A stretch of DNA of 64,000 nt from Candidatus Methanoperedenaceae archaeon (GCA_963753595.1 CAVWCX010000020.1:1-64000), one strand, 5' to 3'. Positions 1-13,873 are shown, numbered from the stretch's first letter. Notes: a model not told the origin generated them from the sequence alone. Translations and numbers: made by a program.

Positions 1-61
1 CTCCCGGGGCTTTTTTAAAACATGATACATTATATAAGCAATTCCAAATGTGGCCAATCCC

Positions 62-1195
62 ATGCTCACAAAAATTATCACAGAAGGCACAACAAAGGTC
101 GAAGTTCCCGTTCCTGACGAGAACTCAAGTTTTCCGCCATCATCAGTCGCAGTCTTCTATAATCCTGCAATGAAAGCCAACCGGGACGTCGCGGTTGCGG
201 CAATATCATGTTTTTCAAAAGATGATCCTGGATACACTTATCTTGACGCCCTTTCAGCATCAGGGATACGCGGGCTTCGCATTGCCAGTGAAGTGGGTCT
301 TAATACCACAATGAGCGACTGGGAAGGAACTTCCTTTGAATTAATAAAAAAGAATATCGAACTCAATAACCTCACTAATTGCACTGCAATGAAGAGGAAC
401 GCCAATGTGGTGATGATGGATGGCAGTTTCGATATCACTGATCTTGACCCTTTCGGAACCCCTGCACCGTTTCTGGATGCTGCCTGTTACTCAACAAAGA
501 GGCTGCTTTGCGTCACAGCCACTGATACCGCGCCCCTTTGCGGCGCACACAAGAAAGCAGGGATCAGGAACTATTCAGCCGTACCCCTTAAAACTGAATA
601 CTATCCTGAGATGGGAGTCAGGATCCTGATGGGCGCAGTTGCAAGGACGCTTGCCAAATATGATAAGGCCATGACACCTTTACTCTCTTACGCCTCGGCG
701 CATTACGTGAGGCTCTTTGTATCAGTGAAAAAAGGCATCAAGGAAGCGGATGAATCCTTAAAAGAAATGGGATTTCTCTCGCATTGTTTCAATTGCGGCG
801 ATAGATTGTGGAAGTTCGGGCTGGCTGTCCACCTTAATGAAAAATGCCCTGTATGCGGGCACACCACATCACTTGCAGGGCCGCTATGGCTCGGGAAACT
901 TCATGAGCGGGAGTTTTGTGAGAAATTGTCAGGCGAGACTGAAAAGAGGGAATTTAAGGAGGCACAAAAACTGATCGCTGCATGCAGGGACGAGCTTGAT
1001 ATCCCGATGCATTATGACATTCATAAGATTTGTAAATCACTGGGTATAACCGCAATGTCAACGGTGGAGCTTATTGTTGCCTTAAAGGAGAGGGGTTTTC
1101 AAGCTTCACGGACGCATTTTACAGGGATTTCATTTAAGACGGATGCGAGTATGGAAGAGATAAAGAAGGTTGTTCTGGGTCTAAAAAGTCAGTAA
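62..1195 (+). CDS. trm1: tRNA (guanine26-N2)-dimethyltransferase
   Basis: VFYNP..NRD, LDALSASGIRGLR, DLDPFGTP, VTATD motifs and CxxC..CPxCG zinc finger. ATG at 62 preferred over GTG at 50. Confidence 0.95.
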   Translation: MLTKIITEGTTKVEVPVPDENSSFPPSSVAVFYNPAMKANRDVAVAAISCFSKDDPGYTYLDALSASGIRGLRIASEVGLNTTMSDWEGTSFELIKKNIELNNLTNCTAMKRNANVVMMDGSFDITDLDPFGTPAPFLDAACYSTKRLLCVTATDTAPLCGAHKKAGIRNYSAVPLKTEYYPEMGVRILMGAVARTLAKYDKAMTPLLSYASAHYVRLFVSVKKGIKEADESLKEMGFLSHCFNCGDRLWKFGLAVHLNEKCPVCGHTTSLAGPLWLGKLHEREFCEKLSGETEKREFKEAQKLIAACRDELDIPMHYDIHKICKSLGITAMSTVELIVALKERGFQASRTHFTGISFKTDASMEEIKKVVLGLKSQ

Positions 1196-1212
1196 AGTAT
1201 CGTTGAAAGACA

Positions 1213-1956
1213 TTAAACTATCTTTTCCTCCCCTTTTTCTTTTGTCCTGATCCTCACATCCTTTAAAAACAACACACTCCGGGCCAGGGCAACAAGTTCA
1301 TCCCTCGTAAGCACTAACTCATTCCTTATCTCGCCCTGGGGGGCATTTTCAGGAATACCCTGCTGGATCACATAGGTGCCCTCCCTCCCCACAAGTCCTC
1401 TTGCAATTCCAGAAACATCCGAAAACCGGCGAAAAACTGTTGTCCTGACTTCAATTTCAATACCATTTAAGTCAAGCGACATTCTTGCGCGACCGGCTGC
1501 ATCATCTTTCCCCCCTGTTATATAGCTGTATTTTTGCGTGTCATCAAGGGGCGCTTTGATATCAAGAAATATTTTATCAAGAAGCTTTTTCTCGATCAGC
1601 TTTGAAAGCCGCTCAGGATAGTACCCGTTCGTTTCGATGCCAACAAGCAAACCCTGTTCTTTTGCGAATCGTGCAAGATGTTCTAATGCGTCATACTGGG
1701 TCGTGGGTTCTCCACCTGAAAAAACCACGGCGCTTATAAAGGGTTTTGCATAAAGGATATTTTTTTCTATTTCTTCAATTTCCATCACGCTCCCTCCTTT
1801 ATACAGGGGCTCTATGCGCTGGTTTGCAACTTTTATGAAATTATTGTTCGAACAATATAAACATTTAAAATTACAGCCGTTAAAGAAAATCACAGATACA
1901 GACCTGCCGTACCAGTCTATAGTGGATATTGGAATGACTATGCCGCTAAAAATCAT
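1213..1956 (-). CDS. Radical SAM anaerobic ribonucleotide reductase-activating (NrdG/PflA-like) protein
   Basis: STIDWYG..FFNGCNFKCLYCSN (CxxxCxxC), SGGEPT, ETNG, DIKAP. Confidence 0.85.
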   Translation of the reverse strand: MIFSGIVIPISTIDWYGRSVSVIFFNGCNFKCLYCSNNNFIKVANQRIEPLYKGGSVMEIEEIEKNILYAKPFISAVVFSGGEPTTQYDALEHLARFAKEQGLLVGIETNGYYPERLSKLIEKKLLDKIFLDIKAPLDDTQKYSYITGGKDDAAGRARMSLDLNGIEIEVRTTVFRRFSDVSGIARGLVGREGTYVIQQGIPENAPQGEIRNELVLTRDELVALARSVLFLKDVRIRTKEKGEEKIV

Positions 1957-2157
1957 TTTAATTTCTTTTCCTTAATCAAAAAGATTATCATTTAATGAAC
2001 GCCGTTTCACCATAATTATCACAAAGCTTTTAAATATTCTCATTCAATCCACAAACATTATACAAACTGAAGCACATAAATAATATGTGTTATATATGTT
2101 ATAGACATCTGCATTAGAACAAAAACGGGGTAAGGCATTTCTAATCGGGAGATAGTT

Positions 2158-2826
2158 ATGACTACTGAGCAAATAAGAGATTTTTTGATCGATGCAATAC
2201 TACAGGGGGAAAGGGAACATGCGAACAAGTTATTGGATGATCAAGTTGCAAAGAGCAGTTATCGTAAAACCATGGAAGAAATTCTCGAGCCTGTTCTTGA
2301 AGAAATAGGGAACATGTGGAATAAAGAAAAAATTTCACTTGCACAGGGATACATAGCAGGAAAAGTGGCGGAGGATTTTCTCATCAATATCCGCGATTCA
2401 GAAGCGCATGACAAACTGAAAGAGAAAAGACCTGTCATCATGGGAAATATAGAAGATGATTTTCATTCCCTTGGAAGGAAACTTGTTTGCACTTTCCTGG
2501 AAGTAGCAGGCTGGCAGGTATTTGACCTCGGAAATGATGTAACAGCGAAGGACTTTGTTGATAAAGCCGTGGAAACCGGCGCCCGTGTTATTGGAGTTTC
2601 AGCCATGATGTTCACAACTGCCGAGAATATTAAAAAAGTCCGGCAGGAGATCGACAAAAGAAAACTCACAGGTAAGATCAAGCTTGCTGTTGGAGGCGCA
2701 GTCTTTCGGATAAGGCCTGAACTTGTCCGTGAAATAGGAGGAGACGGAACCGCATCCAACGCTCCTGAAGCACCTAAATTATTTGAAGAACTATGGAACA
2801 AGTCTCTCAAGGAGGTGCCAGCATGA
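2158..2826 (+). CDS. Cobalamin-binding (corrinoid) protein
   Basis: N-terminal helical cap, then DDFHSLG (DxHxxG), DLGNDV, GVSAMM and VGGA B12-binding motifs. Confidence 0.9.
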   Translation: MTTEQIRDFLIDAILQGEREHANKLLDDQVAKSSYRKTMEEILEPVLEEIGNMWNKEKISLAQGYIAGKVAEDFLINIRDSEAHDKLKEKRPVIMGNIEDDFHSLGRKLVCTFLEVAGWQVFDLGNDVTAKDFVDKAVETGARVIGVSAMMFTTAENIKKVRQEIDKRKLTGKIKLAVGGAVFRIRPELVREIGGDGTASNAPEAPKLFEELWNKSLKEVPA

Positions 2827-3833
2827 ACAGCATGGAGAGAGTCGTCGCCGCCTTACAGGGAAATATGCCCGACAGGCGTGCATTCACAATGACGCTGAGC
2901 TTATATGGCGCAAAACTTACAAATTGTCCTCTTACTGAATACTATACAGTTCCGGAGCTTTATGCAAAAGGACAAATAGCAGTGGTTGAACAATGCAAGC
3001 CGGATATCATTTTCACGCCTTTTGCGCTTGCGCTTGAAGCGCAGGCATTCGGAAGCGAGATAGTCTATCTTCCAAAATCCCCCCCGAATGTCAAAAAACC
3101 ATTCATAAGAAATCCCAAAGATATAGGAAAAATAAAAGTACCGGACGTGAACAGCGATCAAAGCCTTTCATACATAAGGAATTCAACAAGACTTCTCGTT
3201 GACCGTTTCAAAGGAAAAGTTCCCATTTGCGGAGTGCTTACTGCCCCAATAGACCTTCCTGCCATCATAATGGGCGTTGATAACTGGCTTGAGATACTGC
3301 TTTTTGACCGGCAGAAAGTATCAGAGATACTTTCCGTGATTTCCAGACACTTTACCAGCATGGCAAATGGCATGTTTGAGGACGGTATTGATTTTCTTGC
3401 CTTGCCGATGATGTTCTGTAATCCGAAGCTTGTTATTGAAAAAACCATCAAAGAAATCATAATTCCGGAACTGGATGCAATATTCGCAAATGTCAGGGGA
3501 CCTATTGTTTTTCACCATGGCGGAAATCCTATTGCAGGATACCTGGATATTTACAGGCAGCTCCCGAATATCGGGGGTTTTGTCCTTGATCCAAGGGACG
3601 ATTTTAGAGAGGCGCGAAAATCAGCGGGCGAAAAAATACTTCTTCTTGGCAATCTTGATGGACCCACTCTTGGTAAGATCAAACCAGAACGCGCCATCCT
3701 GATGGCGAAGAAGATACTTGATGACAGGTTAGATGACAGGCATTTTATTTTTGCGACAACAGGCGCAGATGTTGCCTGGGACACGCCAATGGAAACCATA
3801 ACGGGGATTTATGATCTTATCCAAAAATATTAA
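2823..3833 (+). CDS. Uroporphyrinogen decarboxylase / MtaA-CmuA family protein
   Basis: MNSMERVVAAL..PDR start, EAQAFG, LLGNLD. GGAGGT RBS before ATG 2823, which overlaps the upstream stop. Confidence 0.8.
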   Translation: MNSMERVVAALQGNMPDRRAFTMTLSLYGAKLTNCPLTEYYTVPELYAKGQIAVVEQCKPDIIFTPFALALEAQAFGSEIVYLPKSPPNVKKPFIRNPKDIGKIKVPDVNSDQSLSYIRNSTRLLVDRFKGKVPICGVLTAPIDLPAIIMGVDNWLEILLFDRQKVSEILSVISRHFTSMANGMFEDGIDFLALPMMFCNPKLVIEKTIKEIIIPELDAIFANVRGPIVFHHGGNPIAGYLDIYRQLPNIGGFVLDPRDDFREARKSAGEKILLLGNLDGPTLGKIKPERAILMAKKILDDRLDDRHFIFATTGADVAWDTPMETITGIYDLIQKY

Positions 3834-4446
3834 GACGGGCAAAGATGCCGGCCAAAAAATAATATGTCTTAGCTGCGGGGTATTCAGGATGGAAATCGAG
3901 TCACTTGCGCGGGAGGGTAAACCTGGCTGCAGGATAATAACCCTTGAATCCATGTTCCATATGAAACCTGAAAAACTCGAGAAGGAGATGGAAAAAGTGA
4001 TTGCTGGCCAAAAAGACAGCAAGATCCTGATCTTATACGGGGATTGTCACCCCCATATGCATGAGATGCAAAACCGGGAAAATTTTGCCCGGGTGGAAGG
4101 TGTAAATTGCTGTGAGATATTTCTTGGTAAAGAATTATATAACAAATTACAAAAAGAACAGGCATTTATTTTCCTGCCTGAATGGACCCGGAGGTGGCGG
4201 GAAATATTTCACCGGGAATTAAATCTGGAAAACCAGGAGGTTGCGGGTAGTTTCATGCGGGATCTCAGGAAGCGGCTTGTTTATGTTGACACAGGCGTTA
4301 TCCCTGTGCCTCACAAAACACTTCAGGAGATATCGGAATTTTTTGGTATGCCTGTTGAGGTATTGAATATTTCCCTTGACAATCTCCGCACTTCCCTGGA
4401 TACTGCAATGATTAAGCTCGATAATAGGTGTCAGAATGTCCAATAA
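3811..4446 (+). CDS. DUF1638-like cysteine-containing protein
   Basis: SCGVF..E, LxxxFHxxPEKL, LYGDCHP, NCCEIFLG pattern; typical neighbour of corrinoid genes. Confidence 0.7.
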   Translation: MILSKNIKTGKDAGQKIICLSCGVFRMEIESLAREGKPGCRIITLESMFHMKPEKLEKEMEKVIAGQKDSKILILYGDCHPHMHEMQNRENFARVEGVNCCEIFLGKELYNKLQKEQAFIFLPEWTRRWREIFHRELNLENQEVAGSFMRDLRKRLVYVDTGVIPVPHKTLQEISEFFGMPVEVLNISLDNLRTSLDTAMIKLDNRCQNVQ

Positions 4447-5947
4447 TTCACAGAAAGGTCTTGCAGATTCCCGGCTTATTGTTGACATGGTTGAAAATAT
4501 CCTCAGGTTTTCTGATAATCCCGGATCATGTGCGGGTTATTTGACAAAACAAATAAGGGAAATCATAGGAGTTCGGATCGTAGCGATCATAGAATTTGTT
4601 ACTGATGAGTCAGGAATAAGCCATAAACTGATAGGTATCTGCCCGCCCAGGAAAGAACCATACTGGGGCAAGCCGGAAATACAGGATTTTGTTTCAAGAG
4701 TATCTAATTATGAAAAAGCCTGCCTGATCGATCCTGTGACAGACCCTGACGGTAAACCGTTATCTACACTGGATATCGGCAAGTCATTTGTTAGTCCCCT
4801 TAATGTCGGTCCTGAAAGAGTGGGTATGATAATACTTCTTGATCTTATGGAATCCAAAGGAGCCTCGACAATTCTGGAGATGGTTGATAAAATATCAGGC
4901 GTCTTTGCATTGATATTGAAGAACTCTCTCCTTTACAGGAACCTTGAGAATACTGTAGAAATAAGAACAAGGCAGCTTGCTCAAAGGGAAAAACAATTCA
5001 GGGCGTTATTTGAGCAAGCGGCTGCAGGTGTGGCGCAGGTAGATATAATGAGCGGCAAGTTTCTTATTGTAAATAAAAAATATTGTGATATTGTAGGATA
5101 TACTAAAGAAGAAATGTTAAATAAGGACTTCCAGTCCATCACATATCCAGATGACTTAATAACCAGTCTTGAAAACATGGAACTTCTGAAATCAGGAAAG
5201 ATCCGCGAATTCAGCATGGAAAAGCGATATATCCGCAAAAATGGAGATATCATATGGGTTAACCTGACGATATCTCCAATGTGGAATCCAGGTGAGAAAC
5301 CAGATTACTACATAGCTGTTGTTCAGGATATTACAGAGCACATGCAGGCGGAAGAGAAATTAAGGGAGAGCGAATCGCGTTTAAAAAAATCCCAGGAGAT
5401 AGCCCATGTCGGCTCCTGGGCGCTGGACGTTTCAACAAACCGGCTGACCTGGTCAGACGAAGCCTATCGCATCTTCGGTTTGCAGCCGGCAGAATTCAAC
5501 CCCAGCTACGAGATGTTTCTCGATTTGGTCCATCCCGATGATCGCATTATGGTTGATGCAGCGTATTCAGGCTCGATTCGGGAAGGCCGGGATACCTATG
5601 ATATCGAGCACAGGATTGTACGCAGGCGCACAGGTGAGATCAGGCATGTCCATGAAAGATGTGAACATGTAAAAGATGATTCAGGCGCGATTATCCGCTC
5701 GGCAGGCATGGTGCAGGACATCACCGAACGCAAGAAGGCTGAAGAAGAGTTACGAAAACACCGCGTTCATCTTGAAGAACTGGTCAAAGAGCGAACAGCA
5801 GAACTGAATCAGAAGAATGACGAACTTGAAAGATTTAACAGGCTTTTTGTGGGGCGGGAGATCAGGATGATAGAATTGAAGAAACAGATATCAGAGCTTG
5901 AGAAAAAAATTGCGTCATCTGAAGATAAAAAAAATGACTTGAAATAA
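4436..5947 (+). CDS. GAF-PAS-PAS sensor protein without kinase domain
   Basis: GAF-like N-terminus; two PAS/PAC units (FRALFEQA..EKRYIRKNG..QDITE; IAHVGSW..VHPDD..QDITERK); C-terminal coiled coil. Confidence 0.85.
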   Translation: MSNNSQKGLADSRLIVDMVENILRFSDNPGSCAGYLTKQIREIIGVRIVAIIEFVTDESGISHKLIGICPPRKEPYWGKPEIQDFVSRVSNYEKACLIDPVTDPDGKPLSTLDIGKSFVSPLNVGPERVGMIILLDLMESKGASTILEMVDKISGVFALILKNSLLYRNLENTVEIRTRQLAQREKQFRALFEQAAAGVAQVDIMSGKFLIVNKKYCDIVGYTKEEMLNKDFQSITYPDDLITSLENMELLKSGKIREFSMEKRYIRKNGDIIWVNLTISPMWNPGEKPDYYIAVVQDITEHMQAEEKLRESESRLKKSQEIAHVGSWALDVSTNRLTWSDEAYRIFGLQPAEFNPSYEMFLDLVHPDDRIMVDAAYSGSIREGRDTYDIEHRIVRRRTGEIRHVHERCEHVKDDSGAIIRSAGMVQDITERKKAEEELRKHRVHLEELVKERTAELNQKNDELERFNRLFVGREIRMIELKKQISELEKKIASSEDKKNDLK

Positions 5948-6019
5948 TGATAACAGATATATCATAAAAGGCCTATCTAATAATATATAAAAACGATCCG
6001 GTAAAAGTATTGTACAGGA

Positions 6020-7948
6020 GTGCTGAGATCGATCACAAATAAAGACAATAAGAGGGTGTACTTTTTCCCTGGTTCTTTTTGGGATATTATAAGGGTAGCA
6101 TTTTTTGTAGTTGCATATTTCATATCTTTCCAGATAGCATATCTGTTTCCTGATGCCGAAAGGATACTGGTTGCCATCTGGCCGGCCGGTGGGATCGGAC
6201 TTGCGGCACTGTTACTCAGCCAGCGCCGCCTATGGTTTATTATCCTTGCAGCGTTTTTTTTGGCAGGGAACATATCCAACCTGATGATTGGCAGGCCGCT
6301 TTTCAACAGCATGGGATTCATGATCGCAAATGTTATTGAATCCTATGGATGCGCATGGCTTATCGTGCGATGGTGCGGTGAAGATATCAGGTTTACCACC
6401 TTGAAAGAAATATCGGCATTGATTTTTGGCGCGGTTTTTGTGAATGCGGGTACTGCCCTCATCGGTGGTGGCACTGCGTGGATTGCAGGTATTTCCCCAT
6501 TCTGGAGTTTCTGGAAGTTCTGGTGGATCGCAGATGGTCTTAGCATATTGATCATCGCGCCGCTCTTCGTTACATGGGGTACATTCCGGGACATATCGAT
6601 TCGCCATCAATGGAAGCTAGGGCTGGAGGGAGGAATATTCATGGTAATATGGTATGAGATTTCAAAGCTCTCATTCCATGTGCAAGCGTCTGGTGATCCT
6701 TTCACTGCGAAGCCGTATATCCTTGTGGCTTTGCTTGCCTATGCGTCTTTACGTCTTGGCCAGCGCGGTGTAACGGTCGCGCTTTTTATTCTTTTAATGG
6801 TAGCGATCACAAGCGAGGCAATGGGAACCGGTCCATCTCCTCTTGGCGGGAACACCATGAACGACCGCCTGCTATTGTTGCAGGTGTTTATGTCAAGTAT
6901 TGCTGTCACCGGGTATATTGTTGCCGCCAGTTACTCTGAATCAAAATTAGCAGAACGATCATCGCGTGAGGACCAGTCCCGCATACGCGCCCTGGGGGAC
7001 AATATCCCCAACGGGATGGTGTACCAGATCGTGCGGGAACCCTATGGAGGCATGCACTTTCTATACCTGAGCGCGGGTATTGAGAAGCTCGATGGCATAT
7101 CCGCAAAAGAAGGGCTGCGTGATCCATCAACGATTTATAACCTGTTCCTGGAAGAAGACCGACCCAAAATCGCGAAAGCAGAGGAGTTTTCCCTGAGAAA
7201 CATGAGCACATTTAATGTGGTTGCACGCCTGCGCAGACCTGATGGCCAGCTTCGATGGATGCAATTGTCTGCATCACCCCGCCGCCTGGAAGACGGCAGG
7301 GTATTGTGGGATGGGATCCAGATGGACATAACTGAGCGAAAGAATGCAGAAGATGCGCTTCAGGTTTCTTTAAAGAAACGCGAGGAATTAGAGTTTATTA
7401 TTAATAACAGCCAGGTAATTGTTTTTCTCTGGCGCAATGAGACAGGCTGGCCTGTTGAATATGTATCAGGGAACATCATGCAATTTGGATACACACCTGA
7501 GGAGTTCATGAAAGGGCGTATTCATTATGCAAACCTGATCCACACCGGCGATCTGGAACGGGTTGGAAATGAAGTGGCCATGTACAGTGAACAGGGAGTT
7601 TCCGAATTCAGACAGCAATACCGGATAATTACTAATTCGGGAGATGTCCGCTGGACTGATGGCGTCACATGGATCCGGCGCGATCAACAAGGCAATATTA
7701 CACATTATCAGGGTATTGTTATGGATATCAGCCAGCGCAAACTGGCAGAAGAAGAACTGAAGAAACACCGCGAGCATCTTGAGGAAATGGTCAAAGAACG
7801 CACTGCACAATTGAATCAGAAGAATGAAGAACTTGAAAAATTTAACAAGCTCTTTGTGGGAAGGGAACTCAGGATGATAGAACTTAAAAAGAAGATCGCA
7901 GAGCTTGAGAAAAAGATTGTGTCATCTGAAGATAAAAAAGAGACTTGA
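6020..7948 (+). CDS. MASE1-PAS-PAS membrane sensor without kinase domain
   Basis: IWPAGG, WWIADGLS and multiple TM helices (MASE1); two PAS/PAC units; same coiled-coil tail as the upstream gene. Confidence 0.85.
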   Translation: MLRSITNKDNKRVYFFPGSFWDIIRVAFFVVAYFISFQIAYLFPDAERILVAIWPAGGIGLAALLLSQRRLWFIILAAFFLAGNISNLMIGRPLFNSMGFMIANVIESYGCAWLIVRWCGEDIRFTTLKEISALIFGAVFVNAGTALIGGGTAWIAGISPFWSFWKFWWIADGLSILIIAPLFVTWGTFRDISIRHQWKLGLEGGIFMVIWYEISKLSFHVQASGDPFTAKPYILVALLAYASLRLGQRGVTVALFILLMVAITSEAMGTGPSPLGGNTMNDRLLLLQVFMSSIAVTGYIVAASYSESKLAERSSREDQSRIRALGDNIPNGMVYQIVREPYGGMHFLYLSAGIEKLDGISAKEGLRDPSTIYNLFLEEDRPKIAKAEEFSLRNMSTFNVVARLRRPDGQLRWMQLSASPRRLEDGRVLWDGIQMDITERKNAEDALQVSLKKREELEFIINNSQVIVFLWRNETGWPVEYVSGNIMQFGYTPEEFMKGRIHYANLIHTGDLERVGNEVAMYSEQGVSEFRQQYRIITNSGDVRWTDGVTWIRRDQQGNITHYQGIVMDISQRKLAEEELKKHREHLEEMVKERTAQLNQKNEELEKFNKLFVGRELRMIELKKKIAELEKKIVSSEDKKET

Positions 7949-8177
7949 AATGAACAGAAAAATTTCAAAACTTTCTCTGGAATGAATATTTGACCCGGAA
8001 GGAGTTTTTTGATGATAATCATATAAAAGTTTTTATAGCAAAGATGCCATATTTATTCTATACGAGATTGTGTCAATAATTGATACTATTATGTCAACAA
8101 AATATTATCAGTTAAACCAATTTCATATTGGGGCGTTATAATAAATCTTGCGCCTGCGTAGATAAACTGGAGGTACT

Positions 8178-10287: not shown

Positions 10288-10686
10288 GTGGAAAAAATCA
10301 TTGAAGTGCTCGAAAAAGAACCTGAAGTCCTCTTTTCTTTCCTTTTTGGCTCGTATGCAAAAGGCATACAAAATGAACACAGTGACATTGATATTGCTAT
10401 TTATCTAATTGATGAGAGCCTGATTGAAAAAGATCCATTATATCCTTCAAGGCTTGCAATAAAAATTGAAAGAGCTCTCCCTGAAAAAAAAACAGTTGAC
10501 ATCAGGATACTCAATGGTTCAACCCTGAGGTTTCGAAGTCAGGTTTTAAGATTTGGAAAGCTTCTGTTCTCAAAAGATGAGAAAAAAAGAATTGAATTTG
10601 AAACATCTTCTTTAGATCTATATTATGATTTCAAACCCCACCTTGAAAGGTACGATGCCGCCAGGCGAGCGAGGATTGGCGTATGA
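10288..10686 (+). CDS. MNT minimal nucleotidyltransferase antitoxin (MntA-like)
   Basis: FGSYAKG..SDIDIA (GSx10DxD). Confidence 0.9.
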   Translation: MEKIIEVLEKEPEVLFSFLFGSYAKGIQNEHSDIDIAIYLIDESLIEKDPLYPSRLAIKIERALPEKKTVDIRILNGSTLRFRSQVLRFGKLLFSKDEKKRIEFETSSLDLYYDFKPHLERYDAARRARIGV

Positions 10687-11099
10687 TCAGTAATGAGGTC
10701 ATAAATGCCATGGTAGATCTCATCGAAGAGAATCTTGCGCTTATCGAAGAAATCAAAATGCAGGGATTTGAATCATTCTCAAATAATTTCAGGGACATTC
10801 AGGCTGCAAAGCACTCATTGCAGGAATCCATAGAGGCATGTCTTGATATAGGGAGTCATATAATAGCTGAAAAAGGCTTCAGAAGGGCAGAAGATTATAA
10901 GGATATTTATAATGTTCTCGAAGAAGAAAGAATCATAACCCCGGTTTTATCTTCGAAGCTTCAGGAAATGGCCAAATTCAGGAATTTGCTTGTTCATAGA
11001 TATGGTAAAATAGATACAAAAAGGATTTTCATCATAATGTCCGAAGATATCAACGATATCAAGCAGTTTGTCAACACGATATTGAAATATATTTCTTGA
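10683..11099 (+). CDS. HEPN (DUF86/HepT-like) RNase toxin
   Basis: FRNLLVHRY (Rx4H) motif; overlaps the MNT stop. Confidence 0.9.
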
Positions 11100-12754: not shown

Positions 12755-13873
12755 ATGGATTCCAACAGCGATTTGACCATCCTGAATGGTAAACTCACTA
12801 TTCTTGTGGCTTTCGGACATGGGGGAGAACTGGATAAAACCCAGTTAAGGAGATTCATTGGTTCGGAAGTTATTTCGGAAAAATGGAATAAACCCATAGA
12901 GGTGGAACAATCCGAATGCCTTACTGTCATAGTGGCAGGCAGTGAGAAAATAACATGCACTACGAATGTATATTCCGATGCATTTATCGCAGGCGCCTCG
13001 ATACTTCGTACAGAAATAGAGATAAGGGACAGGATATTGTTAAATGATATTCTGGTAGCTCTCCATTCAAACACGATAATCGTAGAAGGTCTTGATTTCC
13101 AGTCTTTTGCGGTCAAGAAAGTAAAAGAATTGCGCAAAAAACTGAATCCTGATATTAATATTGAATATTACCCGCATTTTAAAAAATATACTCTTCTTCG
13201 ACTTAAGGATTTTACACCAAAGCTTGACCAGAAAGGCCTGAAAGAACAATATGGTGAGATAATAACGCGTTTCCTGTCAGGAGAGACATCCATCCGCAGG
13301 CTTCACAGCAAAGAGATCGCTGAAAAGCTTTCTAATGACCTCTCATACTACGATGAAGACCTTTTCCTTGCTTCAACTGAAGGCGTATTTATACTGGGAT
13401 GCGAGGATTATATCAAGGATCTTCGCGAACTGCTTGAACTTGCCATCTCACTTCTCCTTTTGTTCCAGCTTTATGACCAGAAGATCGATGCTGAGATCAC
13501 AAACGCTTTTGATGCAATAAAAAAACTTAGCAGTTCAAGGTATTATTTCCTTACGCAGGTTCCCAGAAAGCTTGAAAAATCCCTGTTGAAAGTAAGCGAG
13601 ATAGGGCTTGTTATTCTTGATGATATCGAAGACCTCATGAATCCCCAGAAAGTTACACAGGACTGGTACTACCAGTCAACCTACCAGAAAATGCTGAACA
13701 CTCTCAAAGTTGGGGACTTTGAGAAAGTTGTACAGCATAAGATCGATTCGCTGCAAGACCTCTATATCACAGCAAGAGAGTTGTCTTCAGAGCAATTAAA
13801 TATATTGCTTGAAATCGCAATCGTATTATTGATCCTGTGGGAAGTTGTTAAACCAGCTCTTGTTCCAGGATAA
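12755..13873 (+). CDS. Hypothetical protein with RMD1/DUF155-like C-terminal TM tail
   Basis: 372-aa ORF ending LNILLEIAIVLLILWEV. Confidence 0.55.
   Translation: MDSNSDLTILNGKLTILVAFGHGGELDKTQLRRFIGSEVISEKWNKPIEVEQSECLTVIVAGSEKITCTTNVYSDAFIAGASILRTEIEIRDRILLNDILVALHSNTIIVEGLDFQSFAVKKVKELRKKLNPDINIEYYPHFKKYTLLRLKDFTPKLDQKGLKEQYGEIITRFLSGETSIRRLHSKEIAEKLSNDLSYYDEDLFLASTEGVFILGCEDYIKDLRELLELAISLLLLFQLYDQKIDAEITNAFDAIKKLSSSRYYFLTQVPRKLEKSLLKVSEIGLVILDDIEDLMNPQKVTQDWYYQSTYQKMLNTLKVGDFEKVVQHKIDSLQDLYITARELSSEQLNILLEIAIVLLILWEVVKPALVPG

Follow-up and report, generated by a model that had tools for sequence, protein, structure and literature searches.

A widespread corrinoid, URO-D and DUF1638 gene cassette, carried by a Candidatus Methanoperedenaceae archaeon, as a candidate sensor of cobalamin state

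Cobalamin (vitamin B12) serves enzymes as a cofactor, binds to riboswitches as their ligand and acts as a light sensor in a small number of regulators. In CarH/LitR and AerR a B12-binding domain is used for sensing by single proteins, which act on transcription and rely on light-labile B12. The MtaA-type methyltransferases activate a thiol on a zinc with two sulfur ligands, as described in the available text of PMC539065. Here we analyse a stretch of 64,000 nt from a Candidatus Methanoperedenaceae archaeon (GCA_963753595.1 CAVWCX010000020.1:1-64000, hereafter the window), in which the plus-strand region 2158-7948 carries genes for a corrinoid (B12-binding) protein, an MtaA-like protein of the URO-D family, a DUF1638 protein and a sensor with GAF and PAS domains, followed by a second sensor of the MASE1 type. 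The cassette formed by the first four genes is widespread, common in anaerobic bacteria and uncharacterised. Judging from sequence comparisons, we think it rather probable that this cassette is an undescribed B12-state sensor, in which the corrinoid/URO-D/DUF1638 trio would be the input to a GAF-led signalling protein and the state of the cobalt would be what is read.

No description of the cassette was found in open-access papers and preprints, supplements and subscription journals being outside the scope of that search. GSU2386/2387 are mentioned, in the available text of PMC7894505, solely as speculative parts of the acetyl-CoA pathway that went undetected in proteomes.

Four genes inherited together in a fixed order

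The URO-D subfamily of the window was surveyed in one genome per species with two peptide patterns, which gave 86 confirmed places, the best 80 of which were kept as loci. Profiles derived from first-pass alignments were run over all six frames, and counts were restricted to loci with enough flanking DNA to be assessed. These loci belong to Desulfobacterota, Nitrospirae, Bacteroidota, Spirochaetota, Planctomycetota, Chloroflexota, Acidobacteriota, Verrucomicrobia, Omnitrophota, Riflebacteria, Wallbacteria and Ignavibacteriae, as well as to two Methanospirillum bins. The four genes are inherited together and in a fixed order: the corrinoid gene lies directly upstream of the URO-D gene in all 77 assessable loci, DUF1638 lies downstream of URO-D in 74 of 75, a gene with the N-terminal (GAF) domain of the window sensor also lies downstream in 74 of 75, and all four parts follow one another in order in 70 of 72. 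The start of the fourth gene mostly overlaps the preceding gene, and residues 1-185 of the window sensor match the N-terminus of every one of the 61 first-pass fourth genes. Across loci, the four proteins diverge from their window counterparts in a correlated manner (rho 0.44-0.74), a result that is expected from co-inheritance and is not independent proof.

The outputs found downstream of this shared input are interchangeable, being a kinase, a GGDEF domain, or PAS domains with a tail. Pfam scans covered 57 of the 61 fourth genes, the other 4 running into contig ends, and identified 53 histidine kinases (31 with a fused receiver domain and 10 of the HisKA_2 type), 1 GGDEF protein, 2 PAS-only proteins (L006 and L070) and 1 short protein with no Pfam domain. 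Additionally, DUF1638, GAF domain and kinase are fused in a single frame in five loci (L045, L053, L058, L061 and L075), and URO-D is fused to DUF1638, with both domains at full length, in L074. A corrinoid/URO-D fusion in L012 was not counted, since both of its domains are truncated at the junction.

Clustering of the neighbouring genes across the 80 loci revealed a lone receiver (16 loci) as the sole other recurrent gene, one further cluster being the antisense shadow of the URO-D gene. Genes for an MT1, a second methyltransferase, a RamA-type activase, a transporter or a DNA-binding regulator are not among the conserved neighbours of the cassette in these 80 loci. Compared with the three-component system of MT1, corrinoid protein, MT2 and RamA, the cassette therefore stands apart, with no MT1, MT2 or RamA in the window cluster and none conserved in the survey, and it is not a leftover of a methylotrophic pathway. 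The host genome (2.89 Mb in 37 contigs, 92% complete) agrees with this picture: the absence of MT1 and RamA that an earlier reading, made from the sequence alone, had noted for the cluster extends to the whole assembly, where no match to MtaB, MttB (MTTB) or RamA (RACo_C_ter) was found, and the cassette holds the only URO-D match and the only B12-binding_2 (corrinoid-cap) match of the genome. A sensor accounts better than a catabolic pathway for the missing second methyltransferase, because a single reversible methyltransferase suffices to equilibrate with a donor/acceptor pair.

That sequence-only reading had also tentatively taken the trio for a sensor input, rather than a catabolic pathway, and had coupled it to PAS domains. 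The first part is supported by the survey it had called for, in which a signalling gene almost always comes next (74 of 75 loci) with no conserved MT1, MT2 or RamA, and by the fusions of DUF1638 to the sensor in 5 loci; the second part is not, the conserved partner being instead a GAF domain specific to the cassette.

The corrinoid, URO-D and DUF1638 proteins

The corrinoid protein contains the Pfam domains B12-binding_2 (35.1 bits) and B12-binding (78.9 bits), with the DxHxxG motif at D101-x-H103-x-x-G106. An alignment of 56 homologues shows no change at D100, D101 or G106, and at least 90% of them have H103. The protein thus has the architecture of MtaC/MtbC/MtgC, with cap, Rossmann domain and DxHxxG, but not the score: its top family matches are methyltransferase-cognate corrinoid proteins, all of them below cut-off, the best in NCBIfam being TIGR02370 (methyltransferase-cognate) with 95.4 bits against a cut-off of 215.3. 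It does not qualify as a CarH protein either, scoring 50.6 bits with a model whose cut-off is 400 and having no DNA-binding domain.

The URO-D protein (Pfam PF01208, 179.6 bits) likewise stays below the cut-offs of the MtaA-type families, with 95.7 against 235.4 bits for TIGR01463 and 78.4 against 400 bits for NF040654, and a profile of 19 orthologues has MtaA (4ay7) as its top solved relative (E 1.8e-17). At the positions that we take to be the zinc-ligand cysteines of MtaA, no cysteine is conserved in the 19 orthologues: the H-x-C position is an invariant H-H-G in this subfamily (H231 and H232 of the window protein are invariant) and the position of the second cysteine is occupied by Asp or Ala. 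With both zinc cysteines gone, the protein fails the defining feature of MtaA. The 58 columns that are invariant among the orthologues, whose identity goes down to 49%, nevertheless suggest a working protein, not a decayed enzyme. The label "pseudo-methyltransferase", which the protein had been given from its sequence, is not borne out, even though the zinc-thiolate site is lost.

The third protein matches DUF1638 (PF07796) with 92.1 bits, well above the cut-off of 27, and its earlier description as Cys-rich is a fair one, with 7 cysteines in 211 residues. H50, C79 and C100 never vary across 51 aligned homologues, at least 90% of which also have C22; the same four residues are all kept in the two DUF1638 paralogues of the host genome, which are 22% identical. 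The model (predicted local distance difference test, pLDDT, 93.6) is an alpha/beta fold in which the Cys/His quartet comes just after strands 1 to 4, and this arrangement suggests that C22, H50, C79 and C100 form a metal or cofactor site. Foldseek found no specific solved relative, giving weak alpha/beta matches alone (template-modelling score, TM, about 0.3); the highest score in a wide structural search was Z 7.9, for generic flavodoxin-like or receiver-like folds and no specific relative, and a protein-atlas look-up returned DUF1638 clusters and nothing else. According to the available text of PMC5764234, Phaeobacter DUF1638 mutants show the same phenotype as mutants of the split B12-dependent methionine synthase. 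There are hints of a general role of the DUF1638 family connected with B12 or electron donors. The two paralogues of the host are longer (277 and 285 aa), lie on contigs C1 and C30 (L005 8975-10501 and L004 10390-12857) and adjoin a flavodoxin gene and a B12-binding radical SAM gene.

The sensors, their tail and the archaeal locus

Gene 4 encodes a protein of 503 aa with two PAS domains, whose residues 1-180 have no Pfam hit. The GAF domain previously assigned to this region is correct by fold, since the model (pLDDT 91.8) matches many GAF domains (3p01, 6ozb, 3k2n and others) with a Foldseek probability of 1.0 and a TM of about 0.6. The Pfam GAF model has no hit in the window sensor and weak hits in the sensors of L020, L082 and L085. 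R41, P70 and P121 of the domain are invariant and R72 is kept in at least 90%. In a representative library its profile recovers 424 clusters at E<=1e-30, where the domain nearly always occupies residues 1-190 of proteins of very varied length, or begins at about residue 200 in the few that are fused forms.

Pfam detects neither HisKA/DHp nor HATPase_c in the two window sensors, so neither is a histidine kinase by domain content. The description of both as output-less, made from the sequence alone, does not hold, because each ends in the same conserved C-terminal tail (5741-5944 and 7748-7942), the tail DNA of the first being 80% identical to 7712-7939 over 228 nt; the kinase-less form is moreover a minority variant, a kinase being present in 53 of 57 fourth genes. 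The tail measures about 65 residues; its start resembles the signalling helix that precedes the phospho-acceptor helix of kinases, and a VGRE[IL]RM[IV]ELK-type motif with no His follows. Seven proteins of the host genome carry it, at the C-terminus in every case. A database search with the tail only (E<=1e-5) retrieved 65 proteins, 63 of which have no kinase domains (HisKA/HATPase), and the inputs of these proteins include receiver, dCache-HAMP, MASE1, MEDS, PocR, GAF and PAS domains. Tail-bearing PAS proteins also stand beside the cassette in L006, L030 and L032, and the L006 sensor has the same GAF-PAS-PAS-tail build (45% identity), as does P0123; its presence in both points to a stable variant. 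This coiled-coil tail has the look of a modular signalling output that is not yet described, and it probably acts by binding a partner. As separate observations, host contig C24 has four tail-bearing sensor genes clustered at 52577-66871, including the only other MASE1 paralogue, and in L006 (Nitrospirae) a second URO-D-like gene and then two tail-bearing PAS genes lie at 53-3790, upstream of the full cassette.

The MASE1 sensor (MASE1 85.9 bits, plus PAS) had been counted as part of the system; we rejected it as a cassette member, given that MASE1 is absent from all 80 loci.

The layout first described for this locus, four genes overlapping stop to start at 2158-5947 and then a MASE1-PAS-PAS gene, agrees with the Pfam results and with the open reading frames (ORFs), which on the plus strand are 2158-2826, 2793-3833, 3811-4446, 4436-5947 and 6020-7948. 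The URO-D gene probably starts at 2823 and not at 2793, because its homologues, of 336-342 aa, align from Met11; this start overlaps the corrinoid gene as ATGA. The overlaps are then 4 nt between the corrinoid and URO-D genes (34 nt if the first ATG is used), 23 nt between URO-D and DUF1638 and 11 nt between DUF1638 and the sensor, and a 73-nt AT-rich spacer lies upstream of the fifth (MASE1) gene. The features are collected in Table 1.

Table 1. Features of the cassette and of the insertion that carries it, in window coordinates
Feature	Coordinates	Strand	Basis
Imperfect direct repeat of about 20 nt, left copy, at the insertion boundary	1978..2000	+	Alignment with the uninterrupted NrdG/phasin spacer of G046
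AT-rich region upstream of gene 1, with TATA-like boxes and the ribosome-binding site GGGAG; putative promoter	2001..2157	+	Read from the sequence
Corrinoid (B12-binding) protein, 222 aa, helical cap and Rossmann domain, DxHxxG	2158..2826	+	Pfam, NCBIfam, motif
URO-D family MtaA/CmuA-like protein, 336 aa, lacking the zinc cysteines	2823..3833	+	Pfam, TIGR01463, profile alignment to 4ay7
DUF1638 protein, 211 aa, alpha/beta fold, conserved Cys22, His50, Cys79 and Cys100	3811..4446	+	Pfam, alignment, model
Cassette-specific GAF domain and long exit helix, sensor residues 1-189	4436..5002	+	Homology to fourth genes, fold
Two PAS domains of the gene-4 sensor	4994..5755	+	Pfam PAS, PAS_9 and PAS_3, residues 187-301 and 337-424
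C-terminal coiled-coil tail of the gene-4 sensor, about 65 aa, no kinase domain	5741..5944	+	Shared tail
MASE1-PAS-PAS membrane sensor with the same C-terminal tail; within the insertion, not a conserved cassette member	6020..7948	+	Pfam
Imperfect direct repeat of about 20 nt, right copy; homology to G046 resumes	8097..8117	+	Alignment

All five genes lie on an insertion. In the closest relative searched (G046, whose Trm1 is 91% identical) the Trm1, NrdG-like, phasin-like and ABC1 kinase genes are contiguous, with a spacer of about 105 bp, whereas in the window about 6.1 kb, roughly 2001-8096, separate the same NrdG-like and phasin-like neighbours. Sequence comparison thus identifies the cassette as a horizontal acquisition on a genuine archaeal contig, because the 6.1-kb insertion is absent from G046 and is bounded by a direct repeat of about 20 nt that matches a single copy there. 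No integrase or transposase was found inside the insertion. A profile of the URO-D subfamily finds the gene in 1 of the 53 genomes of the family and in none of the other 52, 48 of which are of the same genus. The nearest named relatives of the cassette are Nitrospirae genome bins, with a URO-D protein 72% identical, and the nearest database protein, 98% identical, carries the name Candidatus Methanoperedens sp. A mis-binned bacterial contig was considered and rejected, as the flanking Trm1/NrdG-like and phasin/ABC1 genes are 86-93% identical to, and adjacent in, a congeneric genome. Elsewhere in the window, 10288-11099 holds an overlapping nucleotidyltransferase (MNT)/HepT toxin-antitoxin pair and 12755-13873 a 372-aa ORF that has no Pfam or NCBIfam match.

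A proposed mechanism, its alternatives and the known systems

In the mechanism that we propose, the URO-D protein would dock on the corrinoid protein, as MtaA does on MtaC, and would carry a methyl group, in either direction, between the cobalt and a small molecule. DUF1638, through its candidate Cys3-His metal or cofactor site, would keep or read the reduced state of the cobalt and would relay to the adjoining GAF domain whether methyl-Co(III) or Co(I)/Co(II) is present. The long helix that leaves the GAF domain would then drive the PAS domains and the output, which in this archaeon would be the coiled-coil tail, probably by binding a partner protein rather than by phosphotransfer. As for the signal itself, we tentatively propose the balance between methyl donor and acceptor; redox or oxygen seems rather unlikely, and light and the supply of B12 are each improbable.

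Several observations weigh against a sensory role. A kinase gene that ends an operon could be a mere regulator of that operon, the cassette sensor of this archaeon has no kinase, and its GAF domain has no conserved Cys or His able to ligate cobalt. Two loci break the pattern, L040 by having no DUF1638 and L072 by having no GAF gene. Related species among the loci make the samples non-independent; furthermore, the peptide patterns were specific to the URO-D subfamily, the very loci under study supplied the profiles and the survey covers cassette loci only, and because its sample is defined by that subfamily it is silent on DUF1638 and GAF genes outside the cassette. A complex prediction with all four chains, in which the GAF domain was the partner, scored 0.00 against a mark of 0.32 and carries no weight either way.

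The alternative that survives best, although we consider it unlikely, is that of an ordinary two-part corrinoid methyltransferase, catabolic or biosynthetic, with an unrecognised substrate, whose second methyltransferase would be encoded elsewhere and whose expression the sensor would merely regulate. The strong constraint on the URO-D protein is what such an enzyme would show, and there are precedents in the available texts of PMC9768040 and PMC10418091, where other systems employ URO-D proteins as methyl-donor methyltransferases and two-component regulators can be encoded within clusters of corrinoid genes; for the mec dichloromethane cassette, the PocR kinase is proposed to regulate expression (PMC9768040). 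A regulated enzyme is, however, difficult to reconcile with a neighbourhood whose conserved genes include neither a second methyltransferase nor a transporter, an activase or a DNA-binding regulator, with outputs that vary among hybrid kinases, GGDEF and PAS-tail forms, and with the fusion of DUF1638 into the sensor polypeptide in 5 loci, while the host genome offers no other URO-D or corrinoid-cap protein, MtaB, MttB or RamA.

It is improbable that the trio instead serves to synthesise a tetrapyrrole or corrinoid cofactor, to modify it or to load it into the GAF domain, which would then be the real sensor and the cassette a chromophore-maturation operon. The URO-D family does act on tetrapyrroles, bilin-binding GAF domains are among the matches of the GAF model, and R41 (invariant) and R72 (kept in at least 90%) could hold carboxylates. 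Those matches are nonetheless generic (TM about 0.6), a cofactor would find no conserved Cys or His in the GAF domain to be attached to or ligated by, and the base-off/His-on B12 motif of methyl carriers is complete in the corrinoid protein, whose top matches are methyltransferase-cognate proteins. Very improbable, finally, is an inert cargo of recent transfer that lost its kinase and has no function, since, despite its presence in 1 of 53 family genomes, its position on an insertion and the missing kinase domain, all five frames are open, every family-invariant residue is kept, and the GAF-PAS-PAS-tail form recurs in L006 (45% identity) and P0123 with a tail that is a widespread module.

Returning to the B12-state sensor, a bolder formulation that may apply, and that we advance with considerable reserve, is that of a new input to signal transduction: reversible enzymatic methylation and re-reduction of a protein-bound cobalamin would report the balance of methyl donors (or oxygen and redox, or light, in which case enzymes would reset it), and the dedicated GAF domain would, together with DUF1638, read this state and pass it on to kinases and, in this archaeon, to a previously unrecognised tail that replaces the kinase on many kinds of sensor. 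If true, the coupling of corrinoid methyl-transfer proteins to histidine kinases would be a new kind of sensory input, in a cassette found in anaerobes of many phyla relevant to sulfur, iron and methane cycling, and a role would be provided for DUF1638 and for the zinc-less proteins, a large group, to which the annotation "uroporphyrinogen decarboxylase family" is routinely and wrongly given. The archaeal copy is evidence, in addition, that the cassette travels as one unit from one domain of life to another and that a small coiled-coil tail can take the place of its usual output.

Among the described systems, the type 1 mlp clusters (PMC10418091) and the mec cassette (PMC9768040) are also orphan clusters of MtaA-like and corrinoid genes in non-methanogens. 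As far as the available texts of the two papers go, mlp clusters encode two or three Mlp proteins with a Ram/RACE activase, mostly in Firmicutes, mec encodes several methyltransferases with the PocR kinase and a two-component system, and DUF1638 goes unmentioned in both; given this different gene content, we rejected the idea that either is the same system as the cassette. MtaC/MtaA (and likewise MtbC/MtbA) of methylotrophic methanogens place the same two folds side by side, and the corrinoid protein of the cassette shares the DxHxxG motif with them. The cassette pair differs in having lost both zinc cysteines and in scoring far below the family cut-offs, in the lack of MT1 and RamA from cluster and host genome, and in being joined to DUF1638 and a signalling protein (70 of 72 loci). 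Unlike in CarH/LitR and AerR, the B12 protein of the cassette is a separate one, is accompanied by DUF1638 and by a partner that resembles an enzyme, and would send its signal to kinases. Phaeobacter inhibens (PMC5764234) and Ruegeria pomeroyi (PMC12478193) likewise have, according to the available texts, a DUF1638 gene next to that of a B12-binding protein and genetically tied to a corrinoid methyl-transfer enzyme; there DUF1638 is found together with a RamA-like protein and supports a split B12-dependent methionine synthase, whereas the cassette does without RamA and its DUF1638 is coupled, and in some species fused, to a GAF sensor.

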